NCBI GenBank assembly: GCA_051599415.1
Contig: AP039690.1
Coordinates: forward strand, 868,001-932,000
Direction: 5' to 3'
DNA from: Savitreella phatthalungensis
Taxonomy: Eukaryota
DNA: 64,000 nucleotides
The first letter of the stretch is position 1, and every line of letters begins with the position of its first letter. A model generated the notes under the pieces. That model searched no databases and had not been told where the DNA came from. It saw only the letters and a program-made list of their open reading frames with translations. This document shows, piece after piece, positions 40,808 through 55,171 of the stretch. The translations under genes were made by a program, and so were the position numbers.

Positions 40808-42715
40808 TTACCATTTCGTTTTCAGCAATCCTCGCATCATGTCAAATGAGTTCCCATCTGCCTGCACGCCGATGACCTGTCCTCGTTCCCCGGTCAATCG
40901 AACTTGAAGGTGTCCGTGGGTATGATGGATGCCAACGACTACTCCACGAAGATTGCCTTCCTTTTCAATCGTGACGTGCTGGCCGTTGTGCAGCCAATGG
41001 CGATAATATCTCTCGGCAATCGCGGCAAAGCCACCGCCGTCAAACTTTGCCACTAGCTCTTCCAGTCGGGAGAGCAGGGCGGCTAACAGATTTTCCATCG
41101 CCACTGATTCCTTGACAAAAGCATTGACGGAGATCGTTGGGGCAGGATTGTTCACATTGACGCCACATCCGATTGTCAGAATGTACTTATCCTGCCAGAA
41201 AGTCGTGCTGATTAGCGAACCAGACACCTTGGCGTAATATTTGCCTTCCAGCTCAAAACACGACGTGCCCAAGGTGTTTTGTGACTGTGGAACCCGCATG
41301 TAGACATCATTTGGCCACTTGATGCCAAGTTCGAGCTCTGGACTGAGCTCGAGCAAGGCCTCGACAGTGGCAAGCGATATCAGATATTGGAAAAATACCA
41401 GCCCTGCAGCTCCTCCACTTCCTGGAGAATCAGCCAGGTCATGATACAAGATGAGGCTGAAGGAGAGCACACCGGGAGGAGATATCCAGCTGTTTCCGCC
41501 CCGACCACGCCCGGATAATTGATGTGAACACAGCATCAAGGTCCCGTGTGGCAGATCACGAGAAAGTGAGAAGTTCTTGTCTAGCATCGTCTGTGATGAT
41601 GTCACTACCTCCGCGTACAACCCAGCAACGCCAAGCCGTGCATGAGGAGACAGCAGACCGAGAAAGCGGCCGACATCGAATAAAGGTGATGGCTCTGCAA
41701 ATCCCAAAGACACATATTTTATCTGTTTGTCCAGATCGTCGGCAAGCGGTTTAATCTGTGGTGCCGACTCGCCATCTGACAAAATCTGGAATGTGTCGTT
41801 CTCACAGACGATGAGGTTTGCCTTTGAGATCTTGCTGCTTAGCACAGCTATTAGCTTTTCTCTTGACCCCTGATCCTTCGCAAAGAGCTGTAAGGTCGAG
41901 AGCGACGGCAACGAGCTTGCGGAATCATTGACGCGCAGGCACAGCCGTTTGTCGAGAATCGACCTGAAAAACGACAGGCGCGCATTTTCATGCTTGCCAA
42001 GCGCATCGTTATTCAAATCTATCTGATCGTTTTCCGAGACGTCGTCGTGAGATCCTGTGCAGATCGTCCGCGGACCGATCTCAGGGTGAACCGCAGACAG
42101 GACCGCAACGCCACGATCCACGTCGCATTTGACCACGCACGCGTCGCCACCTCCAACAACAATGGAATCGGCTGATTCGCTGTATCTCGCGATCACTTCC
42201 ACACCTGGCTTCTCTATCGCATCGACGAACACGCCGCCTCCATTCCAATAACAGCGAAATGGTGGCATTTGCGTTGAGGGTTGTATTGAAACGGCGCGCG
42301 CCCCGATTTCCGAGTCATATGAGAAACCCTCAAAGGCACATCCCCGTACCACGCCCGGGAAGAATCCGAGATCTCGATCACCAACGACTGCCATATCGGC
42401 CGAGCTGGCTTCGAATTCGCACCTGCTTGCAGCGAAATACGCTCCGGCGCAAAGCCCAAGGTACTTGCCCCCTTTTGAGACGAAGGATCGAATTGCGTCT
42501 GTGCCACGACCACGAAGCGCCGCGCAGAAAGGGACGTCCCTCCCGCCCGGAACAACAAGCAGCGCGGTCGAGCTTGCCCAAGGCTCCTCAATCAATGCTC
42601 TTGCATCTATAGTTCTGACAGAATAGTACGGTGTCAGGAGCAACGTCAGCGTCGCCAGCGCTCCTCTGACAGAAGATTTTGAGGTTCCCGCTCCGGCGTA
42701 GACCAGAACATTCAT
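40808..42715 (-). CDS. BPL1: Biotin-protein ligase (holocarboxylase synthetase) with BPL_N domain
   Basis: MNVLVYAGAG, PGGRD, GLCAGAY (BPL_N); QLSGRGRGGNSW, IKWPNDVY, DGNSFDMMRGL. Confidence 0.96.
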   Translation of the reverse strand: MNVLVYAGAGTSKSSVRGALATLTLLLTPYYSVRTIDARALIEEPWASSTALLVVPGGRDVPFCAALRGRGTDAIRSFVSKGGKYLGLCAGAYFAASRCEFEASSADMAVVGDRDLGFFPGVVRGCAFEGFSYDSEIGARAVSIQPSTQMPPFRCYWNGGGVFVDAIEKPGVEVIARYSESADSIVVGGGDACVVKCDVDRGVAVLSAVHPEIGPRTICTGSHDDVSENDQIDLNNDALGKHENARLSFFRSILDKRLCLRVNDSASSLPSLSTLQLFAKDQGSREKLIAVLSSKISKANLIVCENDTFQILSDGESAPQIKPLADDLDKQIKYVSLGFAEPSPLFDVGRFLGLLSPHARLGVAGLYAEVVTSSQTMLDKNFSLSRDLPHGTLMLCSHQLSGRGRGGNSWISPPGVLSFSLILYHDLADSPGSGGAAGLVFFQYLISLATVEALLELSPELELGIKWPNDVYMRVPQSQNTLGTSCFELEGKYYAKVSGSLISTTFWQDKYILTIGCGVNVNNPAPTISVNAFVKESVAMENLLAALLSRLEELVAKFDGGGFAAIAERYYRHWLHNGQHVTIEKEGNLRGVVVGIHHTHGHLQVRLTGERGQVIGVQADGNSFDMMRGLLKTKW

Positions 42716-43026: not shown

Positions 43027-44973
43027 CTACAACTTGGCTTTTGAGCTAGCTGATGGTTCAAGCACACATAGCAATGAGGCCTCGCCAATTTGCTCGCCCA
43101 CCTTGATGTCCTCGGGTATGCTCTTGACCGTGCCCGTGCGAGGACTACGCACGTCGATCTCCATCTTCATTTGCCGTAGTACAGCGATGACCTCGCCTTC
43201 GGCCACAAAATCACCTGATTCCACCAGGAGCTCAACGAGAATTCCTGAGAATGGTGAGGCGACCTGCCAAGGGTCCCGTTTGTCCGCCTTTGCGTGTCTC
43301 GTTGCTCCTTGAGCTCGTTTGAGTGTGAATTCCTTTGCTTCAGTCGAGCCAACCGGCAGGAACTCCGCAGCCACATGTTTTGGCCAATCCATGCGACGCA
43401 ATTTCGTCACTTCCAGTAGCTGAGGTGCACCTCCCCCAAGTGAGAATTCAAATTTGTCACCCTGCCTGAAAAGCTGCCCTGAGTTCGAGCCGGACTGTGT
43501 CCAATCCCGACTTGCCGCCTGACTAGCTTTGACTTGTGCCTGACTGAGCCTCTGCGCCTGATGTTCGCGCTTTGTCAAGTACGCTTGACCTGCACCGACA
43601 ATACGGGAGACCATCGATGCATTGGACAGTGTCGTGATGTCAATAAGACCCGGCCGGTGGAGCAGATTGCTGCGTGTTAGACCAATGAGAAGAGATTGAT
43701 TAGTGTCGACGCCATTGATGCGAAGCGATCGTAGTGCTGCTACAGATCGCCGTAAGGCGATCTTGTAGGTGGCGCCGGAACAGATGACTTTCGCTACCAT
43801 GTTATCGAAGAAATCCGACACCAAGTAGGATGTCGTATTGCTGAGAAGAGAGTCAACACGAACACCAGGTCCGGCAGGCAAATTATGCGACGAAATCAGC
43901 CCGGTCGCAGGGGCGAACGTGATAGGATCTTCCGTGTTGACCCGACTCTGAATGGCATGACCCAAGGGAGCGTGTGGAAATGAGATCGACTCCAAGTTCA
44001 GTCCGTCGAGGCAGACGCCTAACAAGAGCTGCACCAGGTCTATGCCAGTAACTTCCTCCGTGATGGTGTGTTCCACCTGGATTCGCGGGTTGCACTCCAT
44101 GAAATAAAACGGAACTGATTCGCCGGCTGCGCGCGCGTCCACTAGAAATTCGAAAGTGCCGAGACCAATATATCCAACGCGCCGTGCCAGCTTCAAAGAC
44201 GCTTCGATGATCGGTGCCACACGATCGCGGGTCAAGGAAGAAGGCGCGATTTCAATCACCTTCTGGAAGCGACGCTGAAGCGAGCACTCTCGTTCGAAGA
44301 CATGTCTTACATTCCCATATCGATCACCAACGATTTGAACTTCAACGTGCTTGAACCCCCGGAGAGCGGCCTTCTCACAAAAGACTTGGCGCGATGGTGA
44401 TTCGTTGATAGCTTCTCCAAATGCACGTTCAGCTTCAGCAGATGACTCCACAATTCGGATACCGCGGCCTCCGCCACCGTCTTTGGCCTTGATGATGACT
44501 GGGAAGCCGACCTGATTCGCGAACTTGAGGACTCCATCCACGTCGTTCACGGCTGAAGTGGAAGGTAAGGTCGAGACGCCCACGTTAGCAGCCAATGCCT
44601 TTGCTTCGGTCTTATCACCGAGAGTCGCTAGCACGTCAGCAGACGGGCCAATGAATGTCATACCTGCTTGCATCACTGCTCGCGCAAAGGCCGCCGATTC
44701 ACTCAGGAACCCGTAGCCAGGAGCTATGCCTTTGCAGAGCCCACGTCTCGCGATGTCGACAATCTTTTCGATGTCCATGTACTGTGCCGGGGAATCAAGC
44801 CTGATAGAAACCGTGGCGTCGATCGCGTGCGCACCATCGTTGTCGGTGAACAGCGCGATGGTCTCAATACCACGCTCGTGACATGCGTTGATCAGCCGAA
44901 CTGCGATCTCGCCTCTGTTGGCGATCAGCACACGGTTCTCTGGCCCCGTCGGAGGCTTTCTCATGCCCCGCAT
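43027..44973 (-). CDS. Biotin carboxylase-BCCP (acyl-CoA carboxylase alpha subunit) with C-terminal PTS1 -AKL
   Basis: VLIANRGEIA, PGYGFLSE, KAKDGGGGRGIR, ERECSLQRRFQK, ECNPRIQVEH, GPGVRVD; biotinyl motif RQMKM; ends SKAKL*. Confidence 0.92.
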   Translation of the reverse strand: MRGMRKPPTGPENRVLIANRGEIAVRLINACHERGIETIALFTDNDGAHAIDATVSIRLDSPAQYMDIEKIVDIARRGLCKGIAPGYGFLSESAAFARAVMQAGMTFIGPSADVLATLGDKTEAKALAANVGVSTLPSTSAVNDVDGVLKFANQVGFPVIIKAKDGGGGRGIRIVESSAEAERAFGEAINESPSRQVFCEKAALRGFKHVEVQIVGDRYGNVRHVFERECSLQRRFQKVIEIAPSSLTRDRVAPIIEASLKLARRVGYIGLGTFEFLVDARAAGESVPFYFMECNPRIQVEHTITEEVTGIDLVQLLLGVCLDGLNLESISFPHAPLGHAIQSRVNTEDPITFAPATGLISSHNLPAGPGVRVDSLLSNTTSYLVSDFFDNMVAKVICSGATYKIALRRSVAALRSLRINGVDTNQSLLIGLTRSNLLHRPGLIDITTLSNASMVSRIVGAGQAYLTKREHQAQRLSQAQVKASQAASRDWTQSGSNSGQLFRQGDKFEFSLGGGAPQLLEVTKLRRMDWPKHVAAEFLPVGSTEAKEFTLKRAQGATRHAKADKRDPWQVASPFSGILVELLVESGDFVAEGEVIAVLRQMKMEIDVRSPRTGTVKSIPEDIKVGEQIGEASLLCVLEPSASSKAKL

Positions 44974-45239
44974 GAGTGACTATTCAGACTGACGACGGAA
45001 GTGACCACACGCCTACAGGTGGACTACGTTGGTCTCCTGTGCCCTTAAAGTCATGAATTCGATGATCAACTTCGCGTGTAATCCCGTTCGGATCTCGGTA
45101 CGGGGTAGCACAACTCGAAATTGCGGGGTTCAGAGTGCAGAACTGGCATGAGTTGAAGACATCCCGATGAGACGACAGTGACTGCAGCATCTCGACAATC
45201 ATCGCAATAGAGGCGTGACATCAACGATCAAGTGTGAGA

Positions 45240-46895
45240 ATGCCAAACGAGCGGCGCAAGCAGCGAAGAGCTGCAGACTGGTCCCCAGTACTCGATCGTA
45301 TCAGGCATATTCAGCATCTCTCTCGGGCTCCGCCCAAGGATACACGCGGCTACCAGGCGCACATCCGAGCAGGGAAGCAATGGGTGAGAGAAAGAATTAA
45401 ATGCCTCGTCGACGAGGGCAGCTTCCAAGAGATTGGTAGTGTCACTGGAACGGCGGAATATGAGGAGGCGAATAAAGTCAAAAGTTTTGTGCCTACGAAT
45501 ATGGTGACAGGACTTTGTAAGCTTAATTGCCGTCCTGTCGCTCTTGCTGCTGACGATTTTACAATCCGAGCGGGCCATGCTGACGGTGCGCTGTATGCCA
45601 AAGCTGCATATATCGAGCAACTAGCTCAGAGTCTGAAGATGCCGCTCATAAGGCTCATTGACGGTGCCTCTGGCGGTGGCTCTGTTGCTGTATACAAAGA
45701 GATTGGCTTCACATACATCCCACCTTCGACTGGAGCTGGCTGGCAGACGATGGTGGACTCCTTGTCAGTGATTCCCGTGATAGGATGCATCCTTGGGGCA
45801 TCCATTGGCCTTGGAGCGGCCAAAGCATCGACGACGCATTTCTCCGTCATCTGCGCACCTATCGGATCACTTTTCAATGCAGGCCCGGTTGTCGTGGAGG
45901 CAGCTGGCATTGAATCTGGGCTGAGCAACGCTGAACTTGGGGGCCCCGAGGTCGTTTGCACCAACGGCGCGATTGACAACTTCGGAGCAACTGAGGAAGA
46001 ATGCTTCGCAATCATTCGCAAATTCTTGTCTTATCTGCCCTCGAGTGTGCTTGAGCTTCCACCGACGCGTAGATACGACGCTGCCTCGGTTGAGGAGCGT
46101 GCTCGTCGGCATAAGTTCTTGGACACCTGTATTCCGAATCAGTCTAACCGTGCATATGCCATCCGACCGGTGATCGAGGCTCTTGTCGACGCCGATAGCT
46201 GGTTTGAGGTTGGCCCGAAATGGGGCTCACCTTGTGTCGCTGGCCTCGCACGTGTGCGAGGCAGGCCTTGCGGCATGATTGCATGGGACACAGAGAGTGC
46301 TTCGCTCGGGAATTTAACAGCTGAAGCTGCGAAAAAGCTTAAGCGTCATGTCGAGCTCTGCTCGCGATTCGGTTTGCCAATCGTTCAGCTTGTGGATATG
46401 TCGGGATTTGCGATCGGTTCAGCAGCAGAGCGGGCAGGGACGATGCGTGCTGGTGTGGACGCAATACTTTCTGTTTATCAGGCTAGTGTGCCCTTCTTCA
46501 ATGTGGTCATCCGAAAATGCTACGGGGTTGCCGGCGCCTTCCTTGTGGACAACAAATTGCCACATTTCCGGATTGCGTGGCCTTCCGGAGAATGGGGCTC
46601 CCTCCCACTGGCCGGCGGTATCGAAGCTGCCTATGCCTGGCCACTGAAGCAGGCGATGCAAAAAGGCGGGCCAGAAGCACGTAAGGATCTCTATGAGAAA
46701 CTCAAGGCAGAGTTCGATGTGCTTGGCGATCCAGTCCGCACGGCGATCAACTTCGGCATCGAGGAAATTGTACAACCCTCGCAGACGCGTGCCATTGTGG
46801 CTGGCTGGCTGGAGCGTATCTATGAAGTGCACCTGCCAATGCGACTGAAGATTGAGCAGCTCAAGCACTCGCTGATCGGCAAGAGCCTTTTGTAA
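45240..46895 (+). CDS. Carboxyltransferase (acyl-CoA carboxylase beta subunit)
   Basis: VRERIKCLVDEGSF, ADDFTIRAG, GASGGGS, LFNAGPVVV, ELGG, VDMSGFAIG..AE, IRKCYG, AWPSGEWGSLP; ATG at 45240. Confidence 0.92.
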   Translation: MPNERRKQRRAADWSPVLDRIRHIQHLSRAPPKDTRGYQAHIRAGKQWVRERIKCLVDEGSFQEIGSVTGTAEYEEANKVKSFVPTNMVTGLCKLNCRPVALAADDFTIRAGHADGALYAKAAYIEQLAQSLKMPLIRLIDGASGGGSVAVYKEIGFTYIPPSTGAGWQTMVDSLSVIPVIGCILGASIGLGAAKASTTHFSVICAPIGSLFNAGPVVVEAAGIESGLSNAELGGPEVVCTNGAIDNFGATEEECFAIIRKFLSYLPSSVLELPPTRRYDAASVEERARRHKFLDTCIPNQSNRAYAIRPVIEALVDADSWFEVGPKWGSPCVAGLARVRGRPCGMIAWDTESASLGNLTAEAAKKLKRHVELCSRFGLPIVQLVDMSGFAIGSAAERAGTMRAGVDAILSVYQASVPFFNVVIRKCYGVAGAFLVDNKLPHFRIAWPSGEWGSLPLAGGIEAAYAWPLKQAMQKGGPEARKDLYEKLKAEFDVLGDPVRTAINFGIEEIVQPSQTRAIVAGWLERIYEVHLPMRLKIEQLKHSLIGKSLL

Positions 46896-52180: not shown

Positions 52181-54790
52181 TCATCTCGAATTAAGGAGTT
52201 TTTGTAGGGCAGCTTCGATCTGTGGCCAAATGATGTCGCTTGTTTCTCCGCGGAAGTTGACTAAGATCCCTCGCTGCTCATAATAATGCTTCAGTGGAGC
52301 CGTGTTCTCGTCATACACAGCAAGTCGACGTGTAAATGTCTCAGCAACATCATCAGCTCGCTGCGTCAAGCGTTCGCCCGTCAAGTCATCCTGACCAGGC
52401 ACCTTTGGGGGATTAAATGTAAGGTTGTAGGTTCTGCCGCTCGGAGCATGGATCCAACGGTTGACGATCCGATCGAGAATCACCTCGCGAGGTACATCGA
52501 GATTTATGACGGCAGTCAGATCCGCTCCGGCGATGCGCAGATCTCGATCGAGGGTGCGTGCCTGTGCAATAGTCCGAGGAAAGCCGTCGAGAACGAAAGA
52601 CTTGTCGAGTAGCTGGTTATCCCGTAGATGGGCTAAGACCATGGAGCACATCAAATCGTCGTCTATCAACTGTCCTGCCTCAACGATAGCCTTTGCTCGA
52701 ATACCGAGATCAGTGGATTGAACGATCTGCTGTCTTAGTAGATCGCCAGAGGATACAACGACGATCCCCTCGAACGTCTCCATTATACGCTTCGAATGTG
52801 TACCTTTCCCTGCTCCTGGAGCGCCAAGGATGAGTCCACGAATTGCTCGGTCTCTATGATGTGCTTTGAGGGAGGCGCATGTAGCATCGTAGTCTGCCAC
52901 CAACCTCTCCATTGTCGCTCCGATCTGTCCAGTGTGCTGCACAATATGACAGCCGGCTGTAGCTAGCATTTCTGTTTTCTGTGCAGCGGTTAGATCTCCG
53001 GGCATTCGAAGAGCGCCCGCATGGCCCATCACGCGCATTTCAGGGGCCGTAAATCCAGCAATCATAGCTACGATTGGCTTTGGATTGGGCGTCTTGTTGT
53101 ATTCTGCAATAAAGCTTGCAGCCTCCGCTTCAGCCAATCCACCAATCTCACCGAGGACAACGATCCCTCGCGTATCTGCGCGTTGGACAAAGATGCGGAG
53201 GGCGTCTACCAAAGACGTGCCTGCCAGCATATCGCCGCCCATACCAACCACCAAAGATTGACCAAGGCCTACACGCGTCGTCTCGCCGACAGTCTCGTAC
53301 GAAAGCGTGCCGCTCTTCGACACGATGCCAATGCAGCCCGGCTCGTACTGCAAATATGGCATGATGCCGACACGACATTGGCGTGGTACGATAGTACCTG
53401 GGCAGTTTGGACCGATCAGTCGTGTCTTGCCCGCGGATAACCGCAGTGCATCATGCACCCGTAGCATGTCGTGTATCGGCACACCTTCCATGACTGCCAC
53501 GACCAGCGGAATTTGCGCCTGTATGGCGGCGATGATCGCATCCGCAGCTTTTGCAGCAGGCACGAAGACTGCACTGACATCCGGGTCGACATCTGCCACT
53601 GCCTCGCGGATCGTGTTGAAGACAGGAAGCTCGAGATGGCGCTGTCCACCTTTGCCCGGCGAGACTCCACCAACAACATTTGTGCCATAAGCGATAGTGT
53701 CCCGAGCATTGATGGTTGCCTGCCTGCCTGTGAATCCCTGGTACACGACACGTGTATGTCTGTCAAGGTCCAATCGGAGCACTTTTGCCCTGCGCGCATC
53801 GTCCATACAGGATCGCGAGCTCGTGTGAAACTGCCGACGCCCAGACGGCACAGTTGCAGTAGCTGGGGCCTGGCGTAGCTTGGCTTGTTCGATCACAGCC
53901 TTGGCTGCGTCCTCGATAGCATCGCAGCTCGTGAGCGATAGACCTGAACTTTCAATGATCTGGCGGCCCTTGTCCATATTTGTCCCGCGAAGACGTATCA
54001 CGACGGGTGTATCTTTCATCTGAAGTTCGCGCACTGCTGCGACAACGCTCTCGGCGATCATGTCGCATCGTATCAACCCGCCGTAGATGTTAACCAGAAC
54101 GGCTCTGGTATGTGGTCCTCGAAGCAGCACATCGAAGCCCTTAATAAGCAAAGCAGTCGTCGCTTGACCGCCAGTGTCGAAGAAATTAGCCGATTTCCCA
54201 CCATAGAGCGAAATCACATCATTCGTTGCCATTGCAAGTCCAGCGCCATTGACAACGCAGCCAATATCGCCGCCGAGATCCGCGAAAATCAATCCAGCTT
54301 TGTCTGCTTCCTTTTCCCACGCGGTGCGTATGTCATCACCTCGCAAGGAGGCCCACTCGAGTCTTCTGAATGCCGCATCTGGGTCAACTCTGATACGGGA
54401 GACGACGATCTGTTCCTCGACAACGGAGAAGGCTATCTCGATTGCTTCAAGTCTCTTAAATGCTGACCAGACAGCGTCCAGCTGCGGCATTGCGCTGTAA
54501 CTCCCCCCGTTGGACGCGTCAACCAACAGATCCTTGACTTGATCCGAAAGCGTGGCCCTCGTGTACTCGAGACAGTGCATGTGCGTTCCGTGGCCGAAGG
54601 TGTCTAGCACCGGCCTTTTGAGCTCACGATCTATACGTAGAGCGTACGTAACAGCCGCCTCGCACCGGTCAGCTACATTGAGACGGAAAGGTTGCAATAG
54701 CCTTTGAGCATCATCTTGTCGCAAAGTTCGAAAGCTGCGATTAGGAGCGAGCTTTTGTATCGATCTGAAATGTGATCTCATCATCGACAT
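52181..54790 (-). CDS. Fusion: succinyl-CoA-ligase-like beta (ATP-grasp truncated) + alpha + AK3/Adk2-type adenylate kinase
   Basis: Beta: IGCVVNGAGLAMATND, ANFFDTGG, NIYGGLIRCD, RLRGTN. Alpha: YQGFTG, GPNCPG, SKSGTLSYE, GEIGG, MGHAGA. Kinase: GAPGAGKGT, SSGDLLR, LDGFPRT, RWIHAPSGRTYN, QRADD. One uninterrupted 869-aa frame. Confidence 0.9.
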   Translation of the reverse strand: MSMMRSHFRSIQKLAPNRSFRTLRQDDAQRLLQPFRLNVADRCEAAVTYALRIDRELKRPVLDTFGHGTHMHCLEYTRATLSDQVKDLLVDASNGGSYSAMPQLDAVWSAFKRLEAIEIAFSVVEEQIVVSRIRVDPDAAFRRLEWASLRGDDIRTAWEKEADKAGLIFADLGGDIGCVVNGAGLAMATNDVISLYGGKSANFFDTGGQATTALLIKGFDVLLRGPHTRAVLVNIYGGLIRCDMIAESVVAAVRELQMKDTPVVIRLRGTNMDKGRQIIESSGLSLTSCDAIEDAAKAVIEQAKLRQAPATATVPSGRRQFHTSSRSCMDDARRAKVLRLDLDRHTRVVYQGFTGRQATINARDTIAYGTNVVGGVSPGKGGQRHLELPVFNTIREAVADVDPDVSAVFVPAAKAADAIIAAIQAQIPLVVAVMEGVPIHDMLRVHDALRLSAGKTRLIGPNCPGTIVPRQCRVGIMPYLQYEPGCIGIVSKSGTLSYETVGETTRVGLGQSLVVGMGGDMLAGTSLVDALRIFVQRADTRGIVVLGEIGGLAEAEAASFIAEYNKTPNPKPIVAMIAGFTAPEMRVMGHAGALRMPGDLTAAQKTEMLATAGCHIVQHTGQIGATMERLVADYDATCASLKAHHRDRAIRGLILGAPGAGKGTHSKRIMETFEGIVVVSSGDLLRQQIVQSTDLGIRAKAIVEAGQLIDDDLMCSMVLAHLRDNQLLDKSFVLDGFPRTIAQARTLDRDLRIAGADLTAVINLDVPREVILDRIVNRWIHAPSGRTYNLTFNPPKVPGQDDLTGERLTQRADDVAETFTRRLAVYDENTAPLKHYYEQRGILVNFRGETSDIIWPQIEAALQKLLNSR

Positions 54791-55171
54791 CCTTACCCAA
54801 TGATCTTCCCGACCATGTGCTTGGACTAGGTCTCGTCAGCAGTAGATGACGCGGGTAACAAGCTTTTTGATCACGCTGAAGGAGAGCTCTGCATTCGAGG
54901 TTTCCCAGGAATTCTCGGATCAACGATTGTTCGTTCCATGACCGATCGATTAATCGCGAGGATTCCCCACAACTGCATGGCCGGCTGTATACATGCAATA
55001 ATAATTCCGGGTTCTTCAAGTTGATCAATTCGATCGACTCAATATAAATTAAATGTGGGGTAATATTTCTCCAGTGTGTACGTACGTAGGTAAACAGGGT
55101 ACGTGCAAATATGTTCACGACGCACGGACGATGCATGGAATCCCCGATCGTCATCATCTACGGCGTTCTCA

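Follow-up and report, generated by a model that had tools for sequence, protein, structure and literature searches.

The window, a 64,000-nucleotide stretch of DNA from a Taphrinomycete related most closely, among named taxa, to Protomyces and Taphrina, carries a divergent pair of genes for the alpha and beta (CT) subunits of what appears to be a biotin-dependent carboxylase, and it raises the question of where in the cell this enzyme acts and on what. Biotin-dependent carboxylases have been described in the cytosol, mitochondria and plastids; to our knowledge, none has been described in peroxisomes. We conclude that the pair is probably a peroxisomal biotin-dependent carboxylase acting on C2 of an acyl-CoA, a reading in which location, biotin and activity are each predicted from sequence. 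The features concerned are the following.

43027 to 44964, minus strand: alpha subunit gene, 645 aa, with a BC domain, a BT/PT-like middle domain, a BCCP domain and a PTS1 (translation, homology).
43666 to 44937, minus strand: BC (ATP-grasp) domain, residues ~10-433 (Pfam BC_N, CPSase_L_D2, BC_C).
43318 to 43620, minus strand: middle domain, residues 449-549, BT/PT-like at lower confidence (AlphaFold model: long helix plus four strands).
43057 to 43266, minus strand: BCCP domain, residues 567-636 (Pfam, model, alignment).
43162 to 43176, minus strand: RQMKM motif, with the predicted biotinyl-Lys600 at 43167-43165 (translation, alignment).
43030 to 43041, minus strand: PTS1 K-AKL, on a flexible tail past the usual BCCP end (translation, model); TAG stop at 43029-43027.
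44965 to 45239, no strand: head-to-head intergenic region, 275 bp, a presumed shared promoter (same arrangement in L096 and L097).
45240 to 46895, plus strand: beta subunit (CT), 551 aa, PF01039, lacking the N-terminal PTS2 segment of the family (Pfam, alignment).
46878 to 46892, plus strand: GKSLL, a weak PTS1-like CT end (translation).
40808 to 42715, minus strand: biotin protein ligase, 311 bp downstream of alpha, without a PTS1; the only copy found in the genome.

The alpha reading frame is uninterrupted by stops from 44979 to 43027 (minus strand), a splice-site pattern scan of the alpha and CT genes gave no candidate intron, and the protein collection contains products identical to both (645 and 551 aa). 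BC homology begins at about residue 10, and alpha has no N-terminal presequence. Two fungal metagenome contigs (L096 and L097) share the head-to-head layout, each combining a PTS1 alpha (ending RAKL or ASKL) with a PTS2 beta (beginning RLAQVSNHI or RLSQVSNHI), and the Protomyces alpha and CT have consecutive accessions; alpha and CT are a conserved unit. The ligase adjoins the pair in neither contig, so its linkage to alpha in the window is possibly incidental, and a ligase dedicated to alpha was rejected on this ground and because the genome yielded no other copy. On both contigs, which are Pezizomycotina-like, the pair has an HD-domain gene and a gene of cyclase-like type nearby (L096:12049-12873, L097:6199-7233, L097:3878-4597; the domain scan covered all of these neighbours but the L096 cyclase-like frame). 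In the window itself, an 884-codon frame at 52181-54835 (minus strand) encodes CoA-ligase and CoA-binding domains like those of succinyl-CoA ligase and ATP-citrate lyase, followed by a complete adenylate kinase; it is either a fused beta-alpha chain to which a kinase has been added or a run of neighbouring genes read as one.

The original prediction gave alpha a PTS1, and translation bears this out: the chain ends SSKAKL, with AKL at 43038-43030 (minus strand) immediately before the stop. The ending is also conserved. We compared the best 120 of 7,999 scored alpha homologues, a set that includes the window's own protein and whose top-scoring members are kin to one another, so that counts are not independent draws. 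All 120 end in x[KR][LI]; 53 have a canonical [SAC][KRH][LM] end, expected by chance from composition at 0.28%, and 63 match the PTS1 consensus determined for Histoplasma. The remaining 57 fit neither (GKL 45, EKL 8, GRL 3, FKL 1). K or R directly precedes the tripeptide in 84 of the 120, and a PTS1-like end is shared by none of 91 alpha-sized outgroup proteins. A profile search over 1.84 billion representatives, in which a drop in score separates the family from the outgroup, added members from a chytrid (Gonapodya, ARL), the Mucoromycota (Absidia, SKI) and basidiomycetes, and a PTS1-type signal is present on alpha in four fungal phyla.

Were the enzyme mainly cytosolic, with its C-terminal KL structural or vestigial, one would understand why many orthologues end in the non-consensus GKL or EKL, why the window's CT has only SLL, and why the pair is absent from a Histoplasma list of 90 peroxisomal proteins, which includes no carboxylase and no KAG52945xx accession (PMC13343957). 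This absence counts mildly against a peroxisomal location, although the missing alpha is partly uninformative because an already biotinylated protein cannot show TurboID enrichment; beta could have. We regard a mainly cytosolic enzyme as improbable. The carrier lysine stands 45 residues from the C-terminus in the window's alpha and 40-58 residues across the family, compared with about 35 in the ordinary carriers described in PMC3048393. The extra tail is disordered in the AlphaFold model (residues 641-645 have pLDDT under 50) and variable in length, yet its last two residues are fixed, and the partner subunit independently has a PTS2, replaced by a PTS1 where lost. The claim of a peroxisomal alpha remains a prediction, one that we hold with strong confidence given a signal conserved from chytrids to ascomycetes and an independent one on the partner.

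Two further proteins share features of this ending. A protist BC-BCCP protein of 617 aa from Diphylleia rotans (P0331) ends ASKL and has the motif TAMKM; family membership gave AU p 0.47, and the protein may mean that the family, or its peroxisomal location, is not confined to fungi. A thiolase (L092, G000:C6) ends KEKL, the same non-consensus EKL as in 8 alpha orthologues.

For the partner, it had been proposed that a CT ending GKSLL, at best a weak signal, might be imported piggyback. The CT frame does end GKSLL, with its stop at 46895. We searched the 120 best CT homologues (108 non-Taphrinomycete and 12 Taphrinomycete-like, 9 of the 12 assigned by 61% or higher identity) for the N-terminal PTS2 pattern [RK][LVIQ]x5[HQ][LAIF]. 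This strict pattern occurs within the first 40 aa of 64 of the 108 non-Taphrinomycete CTs (shuffles: mean 1.5, maximum 7) and in neither the 120 alphas nor the 12 Taphrinomycete-like CTs; a relaxed pattern, matched by 99 of the 108, was discarded because it also matches out of register. The carriers belong to the Pezizomycotina and Mucoromycota (RLANISQHL and RLDLIKDHL in the latter), and peptides such as RLSQVASHL and RLAQVSSHL are similar to the validated PTS2 of the Histoplasma Pot1 thiolase, RLSQVTSHL, as given in PMC13343957.

Alignment places a deletion of the PTS2 segment in the Taphrinomycete CTs. The twelve Taphrinomycete-like proteins end SKM, AKF, AKM, SYL, SKL, ARM, ANL, AKM, SKL, SLL and SLL, with one truncated; six of the 12 have a canonical PTS1, and the end is weak only in the window's CT and two relatives (SLL, SLL, SYL). 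The pattern test found no PTS2 in the window's CT, and no upstream exon with one was seen in the three forward frames of the intergenic region. What the analysis adds to the original prediction is the CT's own putative PTS2 and, in Taphrinomycetes, its predicted switch to PTS1. Loss of the PTS2 pathway is disfavoured as the cause: the genome encodes Pex14 and two thiolases that keep PTS2-type peptides, so the switch was probably not forced in this way. Since most fungi have a PTS2 on CT and the Taphrinomycetes a PTS1-like end, piggybacking is unneeded family-wide and at most a local fallback, plausible here, where the window's SLL is weak. We think it very likely that beta is peroxisomal. A PTS1 on alpha and a PTS2 on beta, both addressed to one organelle, make a structural explanation hard, and the pair is probably peroxisomal given that both subunits carry peroxisome targeting signals across distant fungal lineages.

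Whether alpha would carry biotin there depends on its motif. RQMKM (43176-43162, minus strand, with Lys600) does differ from the canonical (E/S)AMKM, as originally noted. It is, however, no peculiarity of this protein: [KRQ]QMKM is a family signature present in 106 of 120 alphas (KQMKM 62, RQMKM 34, QQMKM 10), alongside RQGKM (5), RQQKM (3), SVMKM (3), RHGKM (1), RQAKM (1) and TVMKM (1). The signature is an ascomycete one, and derived, since early-branching members carry SAMKM or SRMKM. RQMKM aligns exactly with EAMKM in human PCC alpha and in pyruvate carboxylase, and the BCCP fold places the lysine on a hairpin turn (Pfam, model, alignment).

Several of the substitutions would suit a peroxisomal alpha whose carrier is un- or poorly biotinylated and degenerate or regulatory, with CT working as a biotin-independent malonyl-/alkylmalonyl-CoA decarboxylase, for example in dicarboxylic acid beta-oxidation. 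The charge at -3 is reversed; the E. coli BCCP mutant E119K is poorly biotinylated, and we take the E-to-K/R change in alpha to mimic it. The methionine before the lysine is replaced by G, Q or A in 10 of the 120, mostly the closest relatives. At the BC His236 position, 116 of 120 alphas have F or Y (the window's reads QRRFQK where QRRHQK is usual), and both CT oxyanion-hole positions, with signatures IGLGA (189-193) and YGVAG (428-432), differ from ScPccB in having G-L-G and G-V-A. The malonyl-CoA decarboxylase family was unmatched in the genome, in a search whose control was unmatched too, and in the accessible text on Histoplasma streptavidin blots the only bands named are pyruvate and methylcrotonyl-CoA carboxylase (PMC13343957). 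We nonetheless consider an unbiotinylated carrier unlikely. K-M-E is invariant in all 120 alphas, and K118, K159, K235, E272, E290, N292, R294, E298 and R341 are invariant in 42 of 42 aligned alphas. Six of these (K235, E290, N292, R294, E298 and R341) we take to be the equivalents of E. coli BC catalytic residues. The early-branching members retain their SAMKM or SRMKM, and YGVAG also occurs in bacterial CT relatives, among them single chains whose carriers read EAMKM or SAMKM. From other organisms, PMC3048393 reports natural variants of the motif, ALKV and AMKS. Lys600 is likely to be biotinylated, judging from these residues and the alignment.

As to the kind of enzyme, the AlphaFold model of alpha (pLDDT 87.7) comprises BC, a middle domain of helix plus strands, and BCCP; its best fold match is human PCC alpha. 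The middle domain had no significant full-length outgroup match and, by HMM, no convincing relative beyond the family; ESM Atlas returned only generic biotin-carrier clusters for alpha residues 436-645. Many alpha orthologues are annotated 'pyruvate carboxylase', and automated names also include propionyl-CoA carboxylase; a Paracoccidioides protein that may or may not belong to this family, PAAG_02163, is listed under the latter name in PMC7712234. The pyruvate carboxylase annotation is wrong. Pyruvate carboxylases (PDB 5vyz, 7wta) do give the best BC sequence matches, and the family's BCCP profile top-scores on eukaryotic members, but alpha lacks the TIM-barrel pyruvate CT, has an NCBIfam score of 494 against a cut-off of 965, and occurs beside a separate full pyruvate carboxylase gene in the genome, which also has separate ACC and MCC-like genes.

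In BC trees, which contain no characterised enzyme and whose outgroup rows are labelled PCC- or MCC-like by length and similarity, the fungal clade (supported at 100/97 when 20 rows are used and at 100/98 when 10 are) falls with pyruvate carboxylases and single-chain carboxylases and away from the PCC/MCC-like alphas and AccC. AU tests of its sister gave p 0.21 for all single chains, 0.078 for all pyruvate carboxylases and 0.016 for P0384 alone, the last of which mildly rejects, for BC, an origin by simple splitting of a gene like P0384. For CT, a tree of 49 rows that samples 20 of the 80 bacterial loci, with PccB-like labels of the same kind, joins the fungal clade (100/98) to the single chains P0384 (100/98) and then P0392 (97/97), at 38-40% identity; the bacterial subfamily to which they belong stands apart from both PccB-like and MapLCC-like CTs. 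Compared with single-chain BC-BCCP-CT enzymes (MapLCC, PDB 4rcn; P0384, P0392, P0374), the fungal system consists of two divergent genes with an extra middle domain, and its CT has only ~25-30% identity to MapLCC-type CTs. The two long family-range matches scanned (P0308, P0322), among the 150 best 50%-identity representatives, have no CT domain.

The likeness to PCC (human PCCA/PCCB, PDB 7ybu; Streptomyces PccB, 1xnv) lies in architecture: two subunits, BC-BT-BCCP plus a two-lobed CoA CT, the best whole-chain fold match, and a CT profile that top-scores on PccB-type chains (E 1e-86 to 1e-80, vs 1e-56 to 1e-48 for the MCC/GCC type). In contrast, identity is ~30%, the trees place the two in separate clades, and the fungal pair has peroxisomal signals and no mitochondrial presequence, [KRQ]QMKM for EAMKM, and G-L and G-V-A for G-G and G-G-A at the oxyanion positions. 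The trees indicate that the alpha/CT family is not orthologous to PCC or MCC.

A true propionyl-CoA carboxylase, clearing the peroxisomal propionyl-CoA of odd-chain or branched beta-oxidation, whose products the original prediction named as an example of the substrate, would agree with the PccB-like CT, the fold and the automated names. The BC and CT, however, fall outside the PCC/MCC-like and PccB-like tree groups, and the downstream mutase was not found: PF01642, for methylmalonyl-CoA mutase, had 0 matches in an assembly of uncertain completeness (control matched 8/14). The genome has a PrpD-like methylcitrate enzyme gene, and 2S-methylmalonyl-CoA is, in the accessible text of PMC8708903, not known as a fungal product. 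These three grounds make classical propionate disposal unlikely, and we think it quite doubtful that the pair is a true propionyl-CoA carboxylase.

Alpha and CT have the features of a two-subunit XCC, namely a BC with ATP-grasp catalytic residues, a BCCP and a linked CoA-type CT. Lombard and Moreira (2011) noted fungal acyl-CoA carboxylases in their XCC group, and the accessible text mentions peroxisomes 0 times (PMC3199775). Our literature search found no account of the alpha/CT family or of a fungal peroxisomal biotin carboxylase; subscription papers, supplements and older fungal microbody proteomes may list them. We see the pair as a fungal variant of a known enzyme kind, predicted to be peroxisomal by two independent signals.

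The bacterial relatives of CT offer some context on substrates. A family III CoA-transferase lies within ~6 kb in at least 33 of 80 loci (L011-L090; one representative was domain-scanned, and the genomes are related to one another), which suggests organic-acid activation and carboxylation. In betaproteobacteria the loci also contain a second PccB-like CT together with AccC, an acyl-CoA ligase and a GntR regulator, and parts of TRAP and TTT transporters recur. The fungal genome encodes a family III CoA-transferase of its own (L175:1441-2685, G000:C5) that ends GSKL and is a peroxisomal candidate; presumably it is of the methylacyl-CoA racemase type.

We propose that the cell's single ligase biotinylates alpha in the cytosol and that alpha, already folded, is then imported via Pex5 (PTS1). 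Beta would enter via Pex7 (PTS2) in most fungi and via Pex5 in Taphrinomycetes; for the window's beta, with its weak SLL, co-import with alpha probably helps. The BT-like domain would dock alpha onto the PCC-type beta core, ATP and bicarbonate would load carboxybiotin, and CT would carboxylate C2 of the acyl-CoA to give a (substituted) malonyl-CoA. If the enzyme is active, a short or medium saturated acyl-CoA is marginally the favoured substrate, just ahead of a CoA-bound acid that is substituted, branched or dicarboxylic, with acetyl-CoA slightly less likely again; net decarboxylation as the reaction is improbable. The analysis identified no sink for the carboxylated product.

The genome's only MCC-type pair (G000:C8, L010:1426-3039, L003:1414-3765) also lacks mitochondrial presequences, and its beta ends GVSRM. 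In the 120 best homologues of this beta, 117 end [AS]R[ILM] and 65 have a canonical PTS1. MCC betas generally end RM, and this ending may be partly structural. The pair is possibly a second peroxisomal carboxylase, geranyl-CoA-carboxylase-like; should this MCC/GCC-like pair be peroxisomal too, fungal peroxisomes may host biotin chemistry more generally.

For the family as a whole, we lean towards a peroxisomal CO2 fixation extending from chytrids to ascomycetes, with a PTS1 alpha, a PTS2 beta (PTS1 in Taphrinomycetes), a PC/LCC-type BC, a CT that also belongs to bacterial gene clusters for organic-acid catabolism, and a carrier biotinylated despite its charge-reversed loop. A kingdom-wide family with signals on both chains would point to a missing peroxisomal reaction and to a possible local source of malonyl- or alkylmalonyl-CoA beside beta-oxidation, biotin precursor synthesis and secondary metabolism. 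It would also correct widespread annotations as 'pyruvate carboxylase' and 'PCC beta, mitochondrial'. The Taphrinomycete CTs would show, as a clean natural example, PTS2 giving way to PTS1 while thiolases of the same lineage retain PTS2, and the natural motif variants of alpha could probe what a eukaryotic biotin ligase reads.
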